A stretch of DNA of 42,200 nucleotides from UHGV virus genome UHGV-0106589. One strand, written 5' to 3'. Shown here in pieces: positions 1 through 42,170 of this stretch; position 1 is the first letter of the stretch; each line of letters starts with the position of its first letter. The notes under the pieces are model-generated. The model ran no database searches. It saw only the letters and a program-made list of their open reading frames with translations, and was not told the origin of the DNA. The translations under genes were made by a program, and so were the position numbers. The DNA comes from a virus.

Positions 1-124
1 CAAATGGTAGACAAAACCGCATCTATATCCCAAAAGCCACAAAAGAGGAACCGTCAAAAGACGATTCCCCTTTCTGTTTAAAAGTTCATTTTTCCTTGTA
101 AATCCAAGGTTTTTTATTAGAACT

Positions 125-157
125 TGCCTTCCTTAGCAGCCTCCTCAATCGAAACAG
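125..157. repeat. 33-nt imperfect direct repeat, left copy (29/33 identical to 1197-1229)
   Basis: tgccttccttagcagcctcctcaatcgaaacag versus tgccttcttttgcagcttcttcaatcgaaacag. On the minus strand both copies encode a terminal ...VSIEEAAKEG(K/R)F-stop. The differences are four synonymous changes plus K/R. Confidence 0.5.
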
Positions 158-250
158 GAAACCTTGATTTTAAGCCATTTCTTCCAGCAAAATGTAGGAA
201 TAAAATAGAAATAATCTACACTTAAATACTTCTAACTACTTCTATGTTGA

Positions 251-829
251 TTACGTCTCATTTTTTCTGTTTTTCAGCCATTCCCTCATTGCGTTTTCAC
301 AACATGAAAAATCACAGTATGTACGCCTTATATTTTGTGTTTCTTTTTGATGCTTATAAATTTTTTCTGCTTTTGTCAGTATTTTATCCTTAATGGTTAA
401 GCAAAAAGCATATTCCTTTTCAAATAAGTCCTGATAACGTTCATCGCCCAACTCATCAAATATAATTCTTTTGTAAGCCTCATCCGGAACAGGTATCATT
501 TTTTTGATATCCAAGACAGACAACACATGCATTTTTTTATCTTTGGAATATTCTTTGTATACATCACCCGAAATATTTACAGACTTATCTATCACTTCAT
601 ATATTAAAAAATGTTCGTCACAACTATTTTTCCACTTCTTATGTTTCTCCTTTGCCGATGTTAAAGGAATAAAATATTTACATTCTGTCATGTCTATGAT
701 AATACCAACAAAAGGTTTTATCGCATACCTATAAGAAGCATTATAATATACTTCTGAATTCTTATTATTTAGATATTCCAAATAATCAGCATCAATAGTA
801 TAGAAACCAAAATTTTCAAATTCGGCCAT
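251..829 (-). CDS. toxN: Type III toxin-antitoxin toxin, ToxN/AbiQ-family endoribonuclease
   Basis: 192-aa ORF. The motif KPFVGIIIDMTECKYFIPLTSAKEKHKKW matches the ToxN/AbiQ core (FIGIVLEI-GHKYLAPLTSPKKWH). C-terminal RTYCDFS resembles ToxN GTCDFAV. RBS AAGGAGA lies upstream. The gene sits directly downstream of tandem repeats plus a terminator, the canonical type III TA layout. The gene is AT-rich. Confidence 0.75.
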   Translation of the reverse strand: MAEFENFGFYTIDADYLEYLNNKNSEVYYNASYRYAIKPFVGIIIDMTECKYFIPLTSAKEKHKKWKNSCDEHFLIYEVIDKSVNISGDVYKEYSKDKKMHVLSVLDIKKMIPVPDEAYKRIIFDELGDERYQDLFEKEYAFCLTIKDKILTKAEKIYKHQKETQNIRRTYCDFSCCENAMREWLKNRKNET

Positions 830-840
830 AGTTCTCCTTA

Positions 841-873
841 GTCAAAAAGTGGAGAAGATTTCTCTTCTCCACT
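841..873 (-). terminator. Rho-independent attenuator between toxI repeats and toxN
   Basis: Perfect 11-bp inverted repeat agtggagaaga/tcttctccact (848-873) with a 4-nt loop, followed on the minus strand by TTTTG. This mirrors the ToxIN terminator that sets the toxI:toxN ratio. Confidence 0.6.
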
Positions 874-880
874 AAGCTTT

Positions 881-962
881 AATGTTCCACCTTTGGGATA
901 TAGGTAGCGGGACACCTTCTTTAATGCTCCACCTTTGTAATGGGTAGTGGGACACCCTCTTT
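881..962 (-). ncRNA. toxI: ToxI-like antitoxin RNA: two tandem repeats (881-922 and 923-962, about 41 nt each, about 80% identical)
   Basis: Direct repeats aatgttccacctttgggatataggtagcgggacaccttcttt and aatgctccacctttgtaatgggtagtgggacaccctcttt lie immediately upstream (in transcript orientation) of toxN and before a hairpin terminator. Confidence 0.6.
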
Positions 963-986
963 AACATTTTCCCTTTTTCTAATTCT

Positions 987-1015
987 AATATACATTAGTA
1001 TATGCGCAAAGTCAA
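987..1015 (-). promoter_or_regulatory. putative sigma-A promoter for the toxI-toxN transcript
   Basis: On the minus strand: TTGACT (reverse complement of 1010-1015), 17-nt spacer, TATATT (reverse complement of 987-992). Located about 20 nt upstream of the first repeat. Confidence 0.4.
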
Positions 1016-1196
1016 TAACTTTTGTCAAACGACAATATTATGTAAATCAATTATTCACACATCAAAATGTAGGAATATCATATAGGATTAATGTATAAAT
1101 AGTGTAGGAGTGACCCCTTATTTGCCATAAAAAGTCACTCCCAAATTACTCTTAATTACTTCTAAAAACCGCTAAATACGGCTATTTACTAGAATC

Positions 1197-1229
1197 TGCC
1201 TTCTTTTGCAGCTTCTTCAATCGAAACAG
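1197..1229. repeat. 33-nt imperfect direct repeat, right copy
   Basis: See 125-157. A second patch, caGCAAAATGTAGGAATA (187-204) versus caTCAAAATGTAGGAATA (1061-1078), and cttaaatacttcta versus cttaattacttcta are also duplicated around the toxIN cassette. Confidence 0.5.
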
Positions 1230-1789
1230 CTACAGCTACAGTAGCGCCAACCATTGGGTTATTACCCAAGCTTAGCTGTAACATTTTGCATGATTTATGT
1301 ATGCTATAGAATCATCTACAGCCCTTTATTTACTAATATATATCTACATTTCCGAAAATCTGTAAACCTATAGTATCATCATATATATTATAGACGAATC
1401 TGCTCAAGGTAGACAAATGGTTGACACTGCCTACCTTTTTATCTTTTATGATTTTCCACAGGACAAAACTAAAGCCTCCGGAGTTGCCGCTCTGGGGTTT
1501 TCTTGCTCTTTACGGCGAGCCAATCCGTTTAGGCTGTTGCCGCCTGTTCATCGTCTGTCCATCCATATTTGCAAATCCACCCTTGACACTTGCGAGGATA
1601 GGTATTATACTTTAAGTACATTGTCGATGCAAATGTATCGTGGATTTAAGCTTTATTATATTTTTTGTTATGTTGAGTTTCGACTCATATGCGGATTTTT
1701 TCCAAAAAAGCGACTGCCTTTTATTTGGTAGCCGCTTTTTTCTTTCTTTATTTCCGTAAATATTGATTTAATAGTGTATTTTACTCCGG

Positions 1790-1818
1790 TTGACAAAAAT
1801 ATATAAATAATGTAAAAT
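1790..1818 (+). promoter_or_regulatory. near-consensus sigma-A promoter (TTGACA, 17 nt, TAAAAT, with TG just upstream)
   Basis: TTGACA at 1790-1795 and TAAAAT at 1813-1818, 17-nt spacer. Lies about 30 nt upstream of RBS AGGAGGA and ATG at 1849. Confidence 0.5.
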
Positions 1819-1848
1819 AGGCTCATGATTAAAAATATAGGAGGACAT

Positions 1849-2478
1849 ATGCTTACTCAGTTTAAAGATATTTTTACTTCTCGTGAACTTAAAACACTGG
1901 CATCAATCGTGCAGGTCGGCGATGTAACCTATCGTGAGCTTATGGAAACGCAACGCCCAATGTTGGGACACCCCTATTTTGCTGACACAAGAGGACGGTT
2001 ACGGACAAAACTAGTGCAAATGCAATGTGAGATTGAGAGCCATGACCCGAAATTTCCGTTTGAATTTATTCAACGTGAGTTTCGATGCAAGCAACTGATA
2101 CCAGAACTCAGAAATAAAAATGTAATCCTTCATGTTGCACGTAGTTCAGCACCTGATTTATTACCTTATGCTTCAAAGTACAAGATCAGACTATCAAACA
2201 ATAATCATGCATTACAGAGACAGATGGTTATTGACTTTGATGAAACACCTCCTTATAGCAATGAACCTTATTATGCTATTTTAGCATTTGGAGGACGCAA
2301 TCAGACGTTTTCTGTTGTTCAGTTTCCAGAACCTGGATATACTGGTATTGCAGAATGTTTACCCCTTCCTCAAATTAGTCTAACCACTGAAAATGAAAAC
2401 ATGAAAGTATTTGAACGAAAAAAAGCTGTATTAAAGAAAGAGTTCTTAGCGCATGGAATTGAGGAGAATATTTCATGA
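1849..2478 (+). CDS. hypothetical protein (209 aa from the RBS-supported ATG; ORF track start 1825)
   Basis: RBS ataGGAGGAcat precedes ATG 1849. The stop overlaps the start of the next gene (ATGA at 2475-2478), indicating translational coupling. No recognisable motif. AT-rich. Confidence 0.55.
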   Translation: MLTQFKDIFTSRELKTLASIVQVGDVTYRELMETQRPMLGHPYFADTRGRLRTKLVQMQCEIESHDPKFPFEFIQREFRCKQLIPELRNKNVILHVARSSAPDLLPYASKYKIRLSNNNHALQRQMVIDFDETPPYSNEPYYAILAFGGRNQTFSVVQFPEPGYTGIAECLPLPQISLTTENENMKVFERKKAVLKKEFLAHGIEENIS

Positions 2479-3620
2479 CTAGCACAATTATATCTTCCCG
2501 CATAACAGAAGCTCGGGAAGCTCGTGCTAAATCTATGGAAGATTTAGCTAGTGACATTGGCGTTACAAGGCAATCTATTTCAAAATATGAACGAGGTATA
2601 GTGCGTCCTTCGCCGGAAATGCTACAGGCCATTTCATATAGTCTTGGGTTTCCTACAGAGTTTTTTTATAAATCAGAAGCAAAAATCAATGCTGGTAGTA
2701 GTCCATTATTTTTTCGCTCTAAATCTAATATTGCTAAAAAAGTTAAAACAGCATGCAAATATCAGATAAAGTGGACTGACGAAATAAAAAAACAACTCGA
2801 GAAATATGTTGATTTTATTGAACGGGATCTTCCGACAATCGACAAGAACTACGAAGATTTATCCTTTGAAGATATTGAGGAAATAGCACTAACTATTCGC
2901 AAAGATTGGGATATAGACGATGATCCGATCAATGATTTAATAGGATTATTGGAAAATAAAGGTGTTATCGTAACACAATTTGCCACAAATAGTTTCTGTG
3001 CTTTCAAAGGTATAGATGCTTTTTCTTGTTGGAAAGATGGGACACCATATATTTTGTACCATTCGATTCCTAAGAGTGCTGTACGTACTAGATTTAGCAT
3101 CTTACATGAATTAGGACATCTTATAATGCATAGTTCTATCGCAGAAGATGATTCTGTTAAAAAAGAAATCGTTGATCTAGCAGATATGCAGGCAGATCGA
3201 TTTGCAGCAGCATTTTTACTTCCGGCAACATCATTCCCAAAAGATATACGAAGCACCTCTCTAATTTCATTAGAGGCTGTTAAAAAAAAATGGGGATGTG
3301 CTATGTCCACCATTATTAAGCGTTGTGAGACACTTGAATTGCTAACGGAAAATCAAATAAATTATTTAAAGCGACAAATGACCACAAAAAAGTATTGGCA
3401 TAAAGAGCCGTTAGATGATATTTTAACAATTGCCGAACCCGAAATGATACGTGACGCAGTCTATCTTTTGATCGATAATAGGATAATTACTAAAACTGCA
3501 TTTATCAATGCATCTGGATTATCTATTGATGATTTAAAATGTATCTGTGGATTGCCAGATGAATTTTTTGACGATTTCAATCAGCGGCGCAAACCAATAT
3601 TGCGATTGGTAAAAAGCTAA
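2475..3620 (+). CDS. XRE-family HTH fused to an ImmA/IrrE-family (M78, COG2856) zinc metallopeptidase
   Basis: N-terminal HTH (EAREARAKSMEDLASDIGVTRQSISKYERG). Central HEXXH zinc motif within SILHELGHLIMH. Domain order matches the fused XRE-COG2856 family. Confidence 0.8.
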   Translation: MTSTIISSRITEAREARAKSMEDLASDIGVTRQSISKYERGIVRPSPEMLQAISYSLGFPTEFFYKSEAKINAGSSPLFFRSKSNIAKKVKTACKYQIKWTDEIKKQLEKYVDFIERDLPTIDKNYEDLSFEDIEEIALTIRKDWDIDDDPINDLIGLLENKGVIVTQFATNSFCAFKGIDAFSCWKDGTPYILYHSIPKSAVRTRFSILHELGHLIMHSSIAEDDSVKKEIVDLADMQADRFAAAFLLPATSFPKDIRSTSLISLEAVKKKWGCAMSTIIKRCETLELLTENQINYLKRQMTTKKYWHKEPLDDILTIAEPEMIRDAVYLLIDNRIITKTAFINASGLSIDDLKCICGLPDEFFDDFNQRRKPILRLVKS

Positions 3621-3772
3621 GAATATTATGATATTTCTTCCTATATAAGGGGTGACTGCCAAAAACATAGAATCAAAAGATTTTCAGGGATATTGCATTT
3701 CAGAATTGCATATGCTATAATGCCAGTAGGCAATAAAGGATATAGTTGTTCCATAGTGAGCGACAACAAAAA

Positions 3773-3808
3773 ACCCGGAGGTGTGCGAGACCTTCGGGTT
3801 TTTCTATT
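3773..3808. terminator. bidirectional Rho-independent terminator
   Basis: aaaaaCCCGGAGGtgtgcgagaCCTTCGGGtttttc: an 8-9-bp stem with one G-U pair, flanked by an A-run and a T-run. Lies between the convergent HTH-ImmA gene (+) and the small peptide gene (-). Confidence 0.5.
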
Positions 3809-3854
3809 CCTATTTTTGGAGTGGGAAGGCTTAACCCCACAGGCTGGTTACCGG

Positions 3855-3941
3855 TTATTTATCGCCGTCCAACCATTTGATGATGTAGTGGCAAACCACA
3901 CCAGCCGCGACAGCGACGATAAAGGATATAATAAATTCCAT
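3855..3941 (-). CDS. 28-aa hydrophobic peptide, Fst/Ldr-like type I toxin candidate (or small lysis-associated membrane peptide)
   Basis: MEFIISFIVAVAAGVVCHYIIKWLDGDK: a single TM helix plus a charged tail. Strong RBS GGGAGGTG sits 7 nt upstream. Convergent with the plus-strand terminator. Missing from the ORF track because it is short. Confidence 0.35.
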   Translation of the reverse strand: MEFIISFIVAVAAGVVCHYIIKWLDGDK

Positions 3942-4034
3942 AGTAAGCACCTCCCTTCCTTACCAGTATAGGAGGCGGTAACATCAGCATTATATCACAT
4001 CCATATTGTCCCTGCTACTTCTTTTTCTACCTTT

Positions 4035-4895
4035 TTATTCCGCCAGCCCCGGCCATCTCAGCGCCCCATCCTGATCCGGTGTAAGCGTCACCGGCTCCAC
4101 AATCATGCGGCCCTCAGTATCCATGATGTACCACTTACCGTCTATCGTCTGCTGTCCTGTTACCATAGCACCATCAGCACCCAGGTAGTACCAGTGGTCT
4201 TTATACTTGTACCATGTATCATGCACCATTATGCCGGAGCCGTCGAACCAGTACCACTTGCTCTCGTACCAGTACCAATCATTTCGGACTGGCTGACCGT
4301 TACCAAGGTAGTATCTCCAGCCACCATCTTCCTGCTGCCAGCCAGACTTTTTCTGCGGTTCGGTCAACGCCACCTTAAAATCGATCCACAGCTGCGGCTG
4401 ATCCAGCATCTTACGGGGGCAATGCTTACGCTTTGCATCATAGTGCCGGATCACATGATCGGCCCCGATCCCTGTCTCCGCCACGATCTGGCGTACAAGC
4501 TCCACGCAGTTTGCGCGGGCGGTATCATAATCGGAGTCCGGGTTGACGCAGATCTCAATGTTGATGCTGTTGGTGTTGGTGACTCCTGCCACCAGAGGCG
4601 TACCGTATTGCCTACCTACTGCATAGGCACCGTCTCTGTAATCTAAGGTTTGCACTGCCGCTTTATCATCTACATACCAGTGGACAGAGGTGGACAGGTT
4701 GCCGTTTCGATGGGCTTCGGAGTGTTTAAGGGCACCTGCACCCATCTTGTAGTTGTCCGTCTCGTGGATCACGATCCATGCTGGGCGGTTTTGACCTGCA
4801 TAACAGTTAATCTGTCTGATTTCTTTTCGTATTTCCATAGTTTCCTCCATTATTCTGCCAGTTTCCATCCTGCCGGGTATGTATCCGGCCCCCAT
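4035..4895 (-). CDS. endolysin: N-acetylmuramoyl-L-alanine amidase (Amidase_2/PGRP) with C-terminal choline-binding-type cell-wall-binding repeats
   Basis: AWIVIHETDN...HCP amidase_2 signature. C-terminal GW/WYY repeats (GWQQEDGGWRYYLGNG, DGKWYIMDTEG). True start is probably an internal Met (METGR or MEIRK). Confidence 0.85.
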   Translation of the reverse strand: MGAGYIPGRMETGRIMEETMEIRKEIRQINCYAGQNRPAWIVIHETDNYKMGAGALKHSEAHRNGNLSTSVHWYVDDKAAVQTLDYRDGAYAVGRQYGTPLVAGVTNTNSINIEICVNPDSDYDTARANCVELVRQIVAETGIGADHVIRHYDAKRKHCPRKMLDQPQLWIDFKVALTEPQKKSGWQQEDGGWRYYLGNGQPVRNDWYWYESKWYWFDGSGIMVHDTWYKYKDHWYYLGADGAMVTGQQTIDGKWYIMDTEGRMIVEPVTLTPDQDGALRWPGLAE

Positions 4896-38145: not shown

Positions 38146-38874
38146 TTACGCTATCCCTAAATTCATCTGAGAATTTGCTTCGCTAATCAGCTCCTCTAAA
38201 TAAGTGGGAACCTCATAGCAGTCAATCAGCTCATGGGCGTCTGCTATGTACTTCCGTTTCAGCGCTTTGTATGACTGGGGCCGGCCACTATCATCGTAAA
38301 TTCCGAACTCCCTCTTGACCTGATCGTAAATATCTCGGTACACCTTGGAACGGATTTCTGTATCCTTATAAGCTTCCGACTGCTTTCCTCCTAATACGGC
38401 TACGCCCTTGCGTTTTACATGACTGGAAAGCTCATCTGCTTCAGAACCGTACAGAGGGATGTCGTACTCAAGTCTATCCATACGCTGCTCCATCTTGACT
38501 TGTTTCTGATCGATCATCAGAATGGCTTTCATCTCGGTGGACATATTAGGCATCTCATAGGAACCGGTCTTGCGGAGGGTGGGAAGAACTTCATCAAATA
38601 CCCAACTTTCAAAGCGTTCTGCGGACTCCAGCTTACTGTGAGTAATAAGACGGTACATATCACCTTCACCAATAAAGTTAACATCTTGCATCTTACCACT
38701 GATAGGGGTAGAACGTTTCGTTATAGCCCTACAATGGTCATTGATTGCTTTATTAGGATTTGTATATCCCAACGCTTTTGCCACATCACTTGCCATGAAA
38801 TACGGCTTTTCATCGATCTCAACCGTTCTGATCTGGCCGAACTCCTCATTATTAAAAATCATTAACTCGTGCAT
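38146..38874 (-). CDS. antirepressor (BRO-N / KilAC domain)
   Basis: FMASDVAKALGYTNPNKAINDHC Bro-N signature. 242 aa. Confidence 0.75.
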   Translation of the reverse strand: MHELMIFNNEEFGQIRTVEIDEKPYFMASDVAKALGYTNPNKAINDHCRAITKRSTPISGKMQDVNFIGEGDMYRLITHSKLESAERFESWVFDEVLPTLRKTGSYEMPNMSTEMKAILMIDQKQVKMEQRMDRLEYDIPLYGSEADELSSHVKRKGVAVLGGKQSEAYKDTEIRSKVYRDIYDQVKREFGIYDDSGRPQSYKALKRKYIADAHELIDCYEVPTYLEELISEANSQMNLGIA

Positions 38875-39249: not shown

Positions 39250-40212
39250 GTGAGTCACACGGACGTAAAACTTATAGGTGAACGAATTAAATATGCCAGA
39301 TCTTTGCGTAATCGTACATTAGACGACGTAGCAAATGATATTGGAGTTACAAAATCCACTATACAACGATACGAAAATGGTTTAATAGGTAAGCCGAAAA
39401 TTCCTGTATTAGAATCCATTGCAAAATCATTAAGAGTAAATCCTTCATGGGTATCCGGACAGAATGTCCCTATGGAATACCGTTCTCTAAACTTTCCGAC
39501 AAAGCCCGATGATTGCCCTTTTAATTCTGCATTGGCTAAATTACAGAACAATGATTATTCTCTAACCCAAGAGGAACAGGAGGCCCTTAAAGAAAGGCTC
39601 CCCTCAGTAATGGAACGTGCAACAAAGGCTTTGGATAATTTTTCTTATAAATTATCCTCTCCATATGAAGTTGAAAAAGCCAACGAATTACTTAAAAATT
39701 TTGTTCTGCTAAACAGCGTAGGGAAAGACAAGGCCATTGAGCAGGTGACATTATTAACTAAAATACCTGATTATCAGGATTTAAACGCTAGAGATACCAG
39801 TCATACAACTATCATAGAATTTCACCCTAAACCAAAGAACAAAATTCTTGTCCTTCCCTACTTCCGTGCCGGAGTATCTGCCGGATCGGGTATTTTCATC
39901 CTTGGCAATGAGGCAGAGGACGAAATAGAGTTACCCAATCTGCCAGAGTATGAAGCAGCTGACTTTGCCATTGACGTAAACGGCGACAGCATGGAACCGG
40001 ATTTCTCTCATGAGGATATTGCACTGGTGCAACGGGACGCGGAAATGCATATCGGCGATATTGGCGTATTCATAGTAAATGGGGATGCCTTTATTAAGGA
40101 ATTAGGGGGAAAAGAACTGATTTCCAGAAACAAAAAGTATAAAAATATTCCCATTCATGAAGGGGATAACGTAGTCTGTATGGGAAAAGTGATCGGAAAA
40201 GTACTCTATTAA
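39250..40212 (+). CDS. CI-like repressor: XRE HTH plus S24 (LexA-type) autopeptidase
   Basis: N-terminal HTH LDDVANDIGVTKSTIQRYENG. C-terminal GDSMEP...FIKEL Ser/Lys dyad. GTG start is tight against the RBS, so the exact start is uncertain. Confidence 0.8.
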   Translation: MSHTDVKLIGERIKYARSLRNRTLDDVANDIGVTKSTIQRYENGLIGKPKIPVLESIAKSLRVNPSWVSGQNVPMEYRSLNFPTKPDDCPFNSALAKLQNNDYSLTQEEQEALKERLPSVMERATKALDNFSYKLSSPYEVEKANELLKNFVLLNSVGKDKAIEQVTLLTKIPDYQDLNARDTSHTTIIEFHPKPKNKILVLPYFRAGVSAGSGIFILGNEAEDEIELPNLPEYEAADFAIDVNGDSMEPDFSHEDIALVQRDAEMHIGDIGVFIVNGDAFIKELGGKELISRNKKYKNIPIHEGDNVVCMGKVIGKVLY

Positions 40213-40913: not shown

Positions 40914-40937
40914 ACACCTGTACAGGTGTATTTTTAT
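40914..40937 (+). terminator. perfect 16-bp palindrome ACACCTGTACAGGTGT plus T-run: terminator or operator upstream of int
   Basis: Hairpin-capable palindrome followed by ATTTTTAT. Lies about 40 nt upstream of the int RBS. Confidence 0.4.
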
Positions 40938-40946
40938 ACCCAAAAA

Positions 40947-40962
40947 TGTGCGACGTCGCAAC
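40947..40962. repeat. palindrome family member TGTGCGACGTCGCAAC
   Basis: Same 16-mer as the reverse complement of 7285-7300. Sits 18 nt upstream of the int start codon. Confidence 0.7.
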
Positions 40963-40979
40963 AAATAGGAGGAATGATT

Positions 40980-42170
40980 ATGGGACAATTAAGAACACGC
41001 AAGCGCGGAGCAACCTGGGAGTGGTCTTTTGAGGGAGCACGAATCAATGGCAAACGTAATTCCATCAGCAAGGGCGGATACCGCACTAAGGCGGAAGCTC
41101 TGGCCGCTGGAACACAGGCAAAGGCGGAGTATGATAATGCCGGATCCCACTTTGTACCATCTGAGATATCTGTATCTGATTTCTATGAACTTTGGTTGGA
41201 AAAATATTGCAAAACAAATCTCAAAATAGATACCTACTTGAATTATAAGAAAAAAGTATCTCTCCACATCACTCCGATTCTTGGAAGCTATTATTTAAAA
41301 TCTCTAACCCCTGCCATTATACAGGGATTCATAAATGATAAATTCAATGCAGGGTATAGCCGAAATACGCTATCCGTGCTCAAAGGGCTTCTGACAGGTG
41401 CCCTTGACTATGCCGTAGAGCCTATGCAATTCATTAAATACAATCCTGCCAAAAGCGCAAAATTGCCACCCAAAAGGGCAACTTCCCAGATACCTACACG
41501 AAAAAAGATTCGTACTCCTATATCCGCTGAGGAATGGAGCATTATTATCGGCAGATTCCCGGAAGGGCATTCCTGCCATATCCCTCTACAGCTTGCATAC
41601 CGATGCGGTTTACGGCTTGGGGAATCGTTCGCGCTTACCTGGGACGATATTGATTTTGAGAACAGCACTTTGAGTGTCAATCAGCAAATTCAGAATGTAA
41701 ACGGCGCTTGGGTTTTCAGTAATCCGAAATATGATAGTTTCCGAACGATTGAATTAGATGAAAAAATGCTCAGTCTGTTGCGTAATACATACAACCACCA
41801 AGTTAAAGCAAAAGAATTTTATGAACAGTATTATACTCAACTCTATGTGGACGATCAATGCGTCCTGAATGCCGATGAACGCGGAAAGCCTATTCATATG
41901 ATAAACTGTCGTGAAAATGGTACTTATATCCAACCCAGAGTTATGCAGCACTGCTGCCGTGTGATTCATTACAATCTTGGCTTTAAAGATTTTGACTACC
42001 ATTCCCTCAGGCATACTCATGCAACTATGCTGCTGGAGGCCGGTGCCGATATAAAAGACGTTCAGAAAAGATTAGGGCACAAACATATTGATGTTACTCT
42101 TGATATATACAGCCATGCAACCCCTCGCATGGCCGCACATACGATTGATATTTTAAATCAAATCGAATAA
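40980..42170 (+). CDS. int: tyrosine-type site-specific integrase
   Basis: RBS AGGAGG sits 7 nt upstream. C-terminal catalytic region with R...HxxR...Y (LRHTHATMLLEAGADIKDVQKRLGHKHIDVTLDIYSH). Confidence 0.9.
   Translation: MGQLRTRKRGATWEWSFEGARINGKRNSISKGGYRTKAEALAAGTQAKAEYDNAGSHFVPSEISVSDFYELWLEKYCKTNLKIDTYLNYKKKVSLHITPILGSYYLKSLTPAIIQGFINDKFNAGYSRNTLSVLKGLLTGALDYAVEPMQFIKYNPAKSAKLPPKRATSQIPTRKKIRTPISAEEWSIIIGRFPEGHSCHIPLQLAYRCGLRLGESFALTWDDIDFENSTLSVNQQIQNVNGAWVFSNPKYDSFRTIELDEKMLSLLRNTYNHQVKAKEFYEQYYTQLYVDDQCVLNADERGKPIHMINCRENGTYIQPRVMQHCCRVIHYNLGFKDFDYHSLRHTHATMLLEAGADIKDVQKRLGHKHIDVTLDIYSHATPRMAAHTIDILNQIE

Follow-up and report, generated by a model that had tools for sequence, protein, structure and literature searches.

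The virus genome UHGV-0106589, a stretch of 42,200 nucleotides (nt) referred to here as the window, carries two overlapping genes which very probably form a RosmerTA-type toxin-antitoxin or abortive-infection cassette, borne as prophage cargo at the lysis end and acting by the mechanism proposed below. The first gene, rmrT, encodes a predicted toxin of 209 amino acids (aa), the second, rmrA, an antitoxin in which an XRE-type helix-turn-helix (HTH) domain is fused to a zinc peptidase of the M78/ImmA type (Table 1; coordinates are window positions unless another contig is named). Taken by itself, the locus represents a known system in an ordinary form and is not a new one. An earlier sequence-only reading of this DNA had regarded the pairing as uncharacterised, which had to be given up since the architecture is that of published RosmerTA systems and since the PADLOC models for RmrA and RmrT recognise the pair. 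Its proposal that a prophage carries the pair as a cargo module of toxin-antitoxin-like, defence type was borne out by the HTH::M78 fusion and by the coupled partner, which co-occurred in all loci examined. It had also reckoned with a standard module of known kind; this is partly what was found, namely RosmerTA, but not the ImmR/ImmA kind it had named.

RmrA matched the PADLOC RmrA model PDLC03947 with aa 3-366 (383-position profile, E 7e-105) and, in PHROGs, phrog_2439 (E 1e-94), a family named 'transcriptional regulator'. It also aligned with positions 5-376 of the 377 positions of the NCBIfam spr1629 family model (NF052239), the score of 197 bits lying below the cut-off of 335 bits. As in RosmerTA antitoxins, the XRE-HTH and an M78 domain with HEXXH motif reside in one protein. 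The motif HELGHLIMH begins at residue 211, and its HELGH part (aa 211-215, positions 3105-3119) was invariant in 14 RmrA homologues. The closest solved peptidase is CapP (PDB 7t5t, E 5e-4), with which HELGH and a QADxFA motif could be aligned. The RmrA segment D237-M-Q-A-D241-R-F-A pairs with E-A-Q-A-D-L-F-A of CapP, and a candidate third metal ligand is situated within it. Judged from these alignments, the active-site motif of RmrA is intact. PADLOC also reported domain-level matches to capP (7e-15) and capH (6.5e-9). The layout described by the sequence-only reading, a 209-aa gene with an ATGA overlap to an XRE-HTH::M78 fusion, agrees with the coordinates read from the sequence, with the Pfam domains HTH_3 and Peptidase_M78 and with HELGHLIMH.

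For RmrT, no match was obtained in Pfam, NCBIfam or PHROGs, and Pfam was also blank for 71 members of its superfamily. As far as these three databases are concerned, the statement that the first gene product lacks recognisable motifs stands; PADLOC, however, gave a weak, partial match to the RmrT model PDLC03933 (E 1.2e-8). The protein has 154 close homologues. Where the source gives a name, it reads 'hypothetical protein', and the named homologues come from gut Clostridia. An exhaustive profile search with the family yielded 140 representative clusters comprising proteins of 205-233 aa. When distant members were scanned against PADLOC, nine of ten matched PDLC03933 nearly end to end (approximately positions 7-207 of 212) with E-values between 1e-6 and 4e-15. 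Because of these end-to-end matches of the distant relatives, the product of the first gene is assigned, on sequence grounds, to the RmrT superfamily (approximately 210-230 aa) as a divergent toxin, and the pair shares with RosmerTA an RmrT-family gene adjacent to rmrA. The ATG at 1849 was preferred as start codon to the ATG at 1825, which would open a 217-aa reading frame, because the longer version has no ribosome-binding site and the homologues comprise 209 aa.

The two genes have remained together over considerable distances. In all ten genome loci an rmrT homologue is located directly 5' of an rmrA homologue (66-89% identity), in one of them as a remnant of 59 aa. The same order was seen in two IMG/VR loci and eight metagenome places, among them those of P0017 and P0105 and even that of P0146, a relative of only 23% identity. 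Thus, all 20 related loci are toxin-first, and the conserved two-gene operon expected of RosmerTA is present. On plasmids of Clostridium beijerinckii and Ligilactobacillus salivarius (pMP118), the genes 5' of RmrA-like genes scored 154 and 69 bits, respectively, against the hidden Markov model of the family. The neighbourhood check of 209-aa homologues that had been suggested earlier therefore came out in favour of co-occurrence in genome, IMG/VR, metagenome and plasmid loci alike. RmrA-like genes were encountered on 169 plasmids, their annotations going no further than 'XRE family transcriptional regulator' or 'ImmA/IrrE metallo-endopeptidase'. In five plasmid loci (L021-L025), the partner 5' of the RmrA-like gene is an RmrT-superfamily, spr1630-family or DUF5986 protein; spr1630-family partners occur on plasmids of Enterococcus faecalis and Bacillus cereus (264 and 226 bits), a DUF5986 partner on a Jeotgalibaca plasmid. 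The varied partners represent partner swapping as reported for Rosmer. In the NetFlax study, the ImmA-protease/HTH protein was described as a hub antitoxin with many different toxins, the toxin gene coming first in 58%. One spr1630-family protein also has a precomputed DUF5986 match.

The remnant mentioned above stems from an uncultured Lachnospiraceae metagenome-assembled genome (L010, 3759-3938). Here, rmrT is cut in frame to 59 aa, approximately aa 14-41 being fused to approximately aa 180-209 so that the N-terminal helix is joined to the C-terminal helix, and overlaps an intact rmrA. Apparently, the toxin gene has decayed naturally at this locus. A reversed polarity, in which the COG2856 peptidase is the toxin and the first gene is unrelated or protective, is reportedly the original comparative-genomic prediction for Xre-COG2856 modules, said to go back to Makarova in 2009. 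It is hardly credible for the locus studied here, since L010 has kept rmrA alone and since three published observations speak against it. RosmerTA was described as an antitoxin with a zinc peptidase combined with a toxin of unknown function, and in a Rosmer system other than the present one a ΔrmrA construct was untransformable (Millman 2022 preprint). In RipAB of Streptococcus pneumoniae, ripB (Spr1629; HTH and ImmA-like) is essential unless ripA is deleted, and its product counteracts RipA (PMC12795458). Finally, stand-alone COG2856 proteins were not toxic on overexpression (PMC4257102). Because of these three observations RmrA is taken as the antitoxin and RmrT as the toxin, a polarity which the published data on relatives support and which L010 fits.

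The promoter in front of rmrT matches the consensus at 11 of 12 positions. Site counts are no argument for it, as 18 promoter-like sites were found in the AT-rich stretch versus 17.3 expected from shuffles, i.e., no excess. By contrast, G-TTGACA and TGTAAAAT were invariant in nine of nine related loci with otherwise unalignable upstream flanks. It is this invariance among unrelated flanks which makes the conserved promoter very likely real, in line with the suggestion of the sequence-only reading that a near-consensus TTGACA-17-TAAAAT promoter drives the pair. In the respective alignment (A2), the AGG core of the rmrT ribosome-binding site was invariant and the GGAGG motif largely conserved. 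The rmrT stop and the rmrA start overlap (ATGA, 2475-2478) shortly downstream of an internal Shine-Dalgarno (SD) sequence, and both the SD-like GAGGAG motif and the NTGA overlap, (A/G/T)TGA, are kept in nearly all of the junctions compared, namely that of the window and those of 19 related loci. Between 3620 and 3769, the search revealed no terminator-like site; rmrA is thus followed first by the strong terminator at 3769-3803, which is probably shared with a convergent small-peptide gene.

The borders of the cassette are sharp. The IMG/VR contig L019 shares precisely the interval 1763-3629 with the window, at 97.7% identity, and is unrelated to it on both sides. Among nine aligned loci, similarity begins upstream at the -35 box, the sequence further 5' being unalignable, and conservation between loci stops approximately 12 nt 3' of the rmrA stop codon. 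The GC content of the cassette is approximately 35% compared to 50-59% in the prophage body. Carriers of the cassette were prophages, conjugative elements (ICEs) and plasmids, with flanks that are unrelated between loci: in one metagenome place it is inserted between relaxase and NikA-like genes of a conjugative element, in other prophages it is found at the prophage end beside a CHAP endolysin. In the window, it lies beyond the gene of an amidase endolysin (4035-4895, minus strand) and adjoins a ToxN/AbiQ gene. Taking boundaries and flanks together, the cassette is to be regarded as mobile cargo which a temperate phage of gut Clostridia carries at its lysis end. A megablast search of the cassette against GenBank phages gave no match. 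Just 5' of the cassette there is another near-consensus promoter-like site (TTGACA-17-TATACT, 1583-1611) with a terminator-like hairpin (1714-1731) behind it, and the two could yield a transcript of approximately 110 nt. The region 1583-1745 does not belong to the stretch that L019 has in common with the window; Rfam detected nothing there and no significant family in the window from 1 to 4300.

The position of the cassette bears on two further explanations. According to the first, the pair works like an ImmR/ImmA switch: induction or transfer of the element would be governed by the fused repressor-protease, with the 209-aa protein serving as an accessory regulator rather than a toxin. The combination of an M78/ImmA peptidase with an XRE HTH does follow the logic of ImmA/ImmR and IrrE/DdrO, and the PHROGs family name would suit a regulator. 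However, the prophage possesses its own CI/LexA-type repressor, anti-repressor (Ant) and integrase at the opposite end of the window (38-42 kb), 36 kb from the cassette, which argues against an induction switch of this kind. Moreover, the cassette occurs with its own promoter in unrelated positions of unrelated elements, RmrA matches its model over the full length and not a stand-alone ImmA, and both the decay of rmrT next to a retained rmrA in L010 and the published lethality of ΔrmrA are difficult to reconcile with an accessory role of the first gene. The switch was rejected on account of position and the separate lysogeny module, and is considered very unlikely. According to the second explanation, the cassette is a pure addiction module, stabilising the prophage or ICE by post-segregational killing without any role in defence. 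That it always resides on mobile elements, adjoins a ToxN/AbiQ unit which is itself of toxin-antitoxin type, and belongs to a group whose tested homologues show narrow or no anti-phage activity would fit this assumption, as would the non-defence physiological role of RipAB. On the other hand, several Rosmer systems protect against phages, anti-phage activity of RosmerTA having been demonstrated experimentally with a narrow spectrum, and RosmerTA is enriched in phage genomes together with AbiQ. A post-lysin slot next to ToxIN/AbiQ is typical of the defence cargo of prophages; in the window it may be interpreted as a small island for defence or addiction, composed of ToxIN and Rosmer. Addiction and defence are not mutually exclusive, and addiction as the sole function appears rather improbable.

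One peculiarity of rmrA is a run of nine A within the peptidase region. The run had been noticed before and does lie inside the peptidase gene, though at 3282-3290 and not at 3284-3292. It is interrupted in all 19 other homologues examined, including the 97.7%-identical cassette (AAAAAAAAG). By this comparison, it is without a conserved role, and a programmed slippage or phase-variation site was rejected since the run is unconserved even in the nearly identical cassette. Two public contigs (L026, 2084-2107; L027, 1566-1589) have ten A in its place, L026 representing the same prophage as the window (99.86% identity). The additional nucleotide truncates RmrA after residue 272, leaving open reading frames (ORFs) of 281 aa and 105 aa, while rmrT is intact in both contigs. 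Either an error in sequencing the homopolymer or a real, rare slippage or frameshift allele could account for the A10 variant.

Anatomy, family assignment, conserved synteny and mobile-cargo status of the RosmerTA pair are direct observations; the mechanism beyond them is inferred from published relatives. Transcription from the one conserved sigma-70-type promoter would give a bicistronic mRNA. The rmrT product is predicted to be a soluble alpha/beta toxin that arrests growth, while RmrA, whose translation would be coupled to that of rmrT, should neutralise RmrT and probably represses the promoter by its XRE-HTH. The intact HEXXH M78 domain is probably the switch by which, in analogy to ImmA, IrrE and CapP, a cue from infection or DNA damage might be sensed. 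Alternatively, the antitoxin may merely be lost or degraded, e.g., on loss of the element. Freed RmrT would then stop the growth of the infected cell, whereby the lysogen population is protected and the element also stabilised.

Several points weigh against this interpretation. The direct match of RmrT to PDLC03933 is limited to aa 86-173. A search for an operator revealed no palindrome at the promoter; the sole candidate was an AT-rich inverted repeat of 73% complementarity, which lies in part beyond the conserved region. Autoregulation by RmrA is thus suggested by analogy alone. A part of the peptidase as the switch, in this or any other Rosmer system, is likewise no more than putative. Toxicity of RmrT, neutralisation by RmrA and phage resistance are, for this clade, predicted from sequence and published relatives, and many of the Rosmer homologues assayed in published work gave no protection from the phages used. 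If the A10 allele is real, full-length RmrA is not strictly needed beside an intact rmrT. Finally, the link of RmrT to RipA discussed below is statistically weak (hhalign probability only 6-9%).

In comparison with other systems, the pair resembles RosmerTA in being a two-gene operon on phages and mobile elements, in its HTH-peptidase antitoxin and in the commoner, toxin-first order. It differs in its toxin clade, which is recognised weakly and partially by the RmrT model and has no counterpart in Pfam, NCBIfam or PHROGs. RmrTA of the Gordonia phage Kita (NetFlax D5/D25) is likewise phage-encoded, has an ImmA-type antitoxin and confers narrow-spectrum defence, but Kita RmrT is membrane-localised and depolarising, whereas the toxin of the window was modelled as a soluble alpha/beta protein without hydrophobic segment. 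ImmR/ImmA of ICEBs1, IrrE/DdrO of Deinococcus and CapH/CapP of the CBASS defence operons also combine an HEXXH M78 metallopeptidase with an XRE-type HTH, CapP having the HELGH and QADxFA motifs in common with RmrA. In these three systems, protease and repressor are separate proteins controlling induction of the element, a stress regulon or the CBASS operon, respectively. By contrast, HTH and peptidase of the window are fused, paired with a toxin and remote from the lysogeny module. The ImmR/ImmA genes adjoin an integrase gene, which is 36 kb away here, and CapH/CapP have CBASS genes as neighbours, while here such genes are absent from the vicinity, the neighbours being ToxN and the amidase.

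The fold of RmrT was predicted by AlphaFold2 (pLDDT 86, pTM 0.84). The soluble alpha/beta model, which lacks a membrane or hydrophobic segment, consists of two long N-terminal helices, three strands, a helix, a coil, three further strands and a long C-terminal helix. A PDB sequence search with RmrT gave only a chance-level match (5ted, E 0.028), and Foldseek retrieved nothing significant for the model among viral structures. Across the superfamily only L105, P106, Y111, N119, Q125 and P160 are nearly invariant, and for this reason no nuclease catalytic motif can be called conserved. That RmrT is a divergent PD-(D/E)xK (restriction-endonuclease-like) nuclease which degrades DNA once released is considered unlikely. 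The only strongly conserved segment contains Q125, which is Q in 66 of 71 sequences and begins the pattern Q-[LMI]-x-[FLIM]-[DNE]-[LFI]. In the model, Q125-F130 is mostly a coil region.

A tentative lead regarding the target of RmrT comes from RipAB. RipB has the HTH plus ImmA-like architecture of RmrA and aligns with it over the full length, and the toxin gene is likewise upstream. Differences are that both proteins of the window miss the NCBIfam cut-offs and that the toxins comprise 209 versus approximately 250 aa. The NCBIfam model 'spr1630 family ClpXP-sensitive toxin' (NF052238), to which RipA belongs, has a cut-off of 125 bits, and true members reach 226-264 bits; RmrT itself gave no match. 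Nevertheless, weak matches were obtained for 9 of 97 superfamily members (best E 2e-5), and it was the only model matching more than two members, the next one recurring in two. Genuine spr1630-family proteins were gathered through plasmid neighbours of RmrA homologues and one homologue search. A homologue search with the alignment of distant RmrT members returned only seven proteins, none of the spr1630 family. In hhalign comparisons, the RmrT and spr1630 profiles were co-linear over the whole length (P 0.004-0.006), and conserved motifs of both families were paired with each other (Y..N, Q-h-x-h-(D/E)-h, YYxxxTY and P). The AlphaFold2 model of a spr1630-family protein (pLDDT 67.5) shows the same order of elements as RmrT, alpha-alpha-beta3-alpha-loop-beta3-alpha, the Q125-type segment falling into coil or low-confidence regions in both models. 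Remote homology of the RmrT and RipA families is tentatively regarded as likely, as far as profiles and models can indicate. RipA reportedly acts on the DnaN sliding clamp by binding in its hydrophobic pocket. The segment Q125-M-V-I-D-F130 resembles beta-clamp-binding motifs of the QLxLxL type, which is meant as a hypothesis only; its alternating hydrophobic pattern could equally be that of a buried strand. By analogy to RipA, the replication sliding clamp is our preferred guess for the target of RmrT, with DnaN targeting and the ClpX dependence of RipAB being conjectural for the pair in the window. It is conceivable, though rather doubtful, that the soluble 'common-fold' Rosmer toxins including the 209-aa clade are RipA homologues at large, i.e., inactivated restriction-endonuclease-like scaffolds which display a clamp-binding-type motif and halt replication by plugging the DnaN pocket.

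Some other features of the window surround the cassette. As had been proposed, its neighbour is a ToxIN system; ToxN was confirmed by Pfam, and the ToxIN/AbiQ-type unit (251-1015, minus strand) looks complete. Directly after the amidase gene, a 28-aa hydrophobic ORF (MEFIISFIVAVAAGVVCHYIIKWLDGDK; 3859-3945, minus strand) with a strong ribosome-binding site is convergent with an extended -10 motif, TGcTATAAT (3714-3722, plus strand), the strong bidirectional terminator downstream of rmrA being common to both. The layout of 3694-3945 resembles a type I toxin-antitoxin locus; the designation 'Fst-like' formerly applied to the peptide was not upheld by Pfam, where it did not match Fst_toxin. A 31-aa ORF (1189-1284, minus strand) matches Pfam GGGtGRT over the final 22 positions of the model, at an E-value of 4.5e-6 that falls narrowly short of the cut-off, and is probably the remnant of a truncated bacterial gene in the cargo region.

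Table 1. Features of the rmrTA cassette and of other parts of the window
Feature	Position	Strand	Evidence or remark
toxN	251-829	-	Pfam ToxN_toxin E 5.5e-42; PADLOC AbiQ
Terminator-like hairpin between repeats and toxN	873-848	-	
40-nt repeat, approximately 2.1 copies	877-964	-	ToxIN/AbiQ-type unit
Promoter-like site of the ToxIN unit	1015-987	-	
Mobile rmrTA cassette	1763-3629	+	Sharp identity boundaries versus L019; locus alignments
Promoter, very likely real	1790-1818	+	TTGACA 1790-1795; 17-nt spacer; TG + TAAAAT 1811-1818 (TAAAAT 1813-1818)
rmrT ribosome-binding site	1840-1845	+	Sequence (GGAGGA)
rmrT, 209-aa predicted toxin, divergent RmrT-superfamily member	1849-2478	+	PADLOC and profile searches
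Codons Q125-M-V-I-D-F130	2221-2238	+	Part of the only strongly conserved superfamily segment (Y111, N119, Q125)
Internal SD sequence in the 3' end of rmrT	2461-2466	+	GAGGAG, 8 nt before the rmrA ATG
rmrA, 381-aa predicted antitoxin	2475-3620	+	XRE-HTH, M78/ImmA-like Zn-peptidase, C-terminal helical region
HTH_3 (XRE) DNA-binding domain, aa 12-61	2508-2657	+	Pfam PF01381 E 7e-13; PDB 9sf2 (transcriptional regulator) E 2e-5
Peptidase_M78 domain, aa 182-283	3018-3323	+	Pfam PF06114 E 9e-13
A9 homopolymer, Lys270-272 codons, incidental	3282-3290	+	
Terminator, strong (A-tract/hairpin/U-tract)	3769-3803	.	RNA fold -28.2 kcal/mol, z -4.0
Anti-repressor (Ant)	38146-38874	-	Prophage lysogeny module
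CI-like repressor, 320 aa, LexA/UmuD-like C-terminal part	39250-40212		Prophage lysogeny module
Tyrosine integrase	40926-42170		Prophage lysogeny module

For the gut Clostridia, the results allow a widespread family so far carried as 'hypothetical protein' to be annotated as RosmerTA toxin, and its 'XRE family regulator' partner as the antitoxin. Interest in the locus could be raised solely by the tentative RipA/clamp lead, as it offers a concrete and cheap hypothesis for the mechanism of Rosmer toxins. If it is true, a large fraction of the Rosmer systems on phages, ICEs and plasmids would be poisons of the replication clamp that are gated by an HTH-metallopeptidase.

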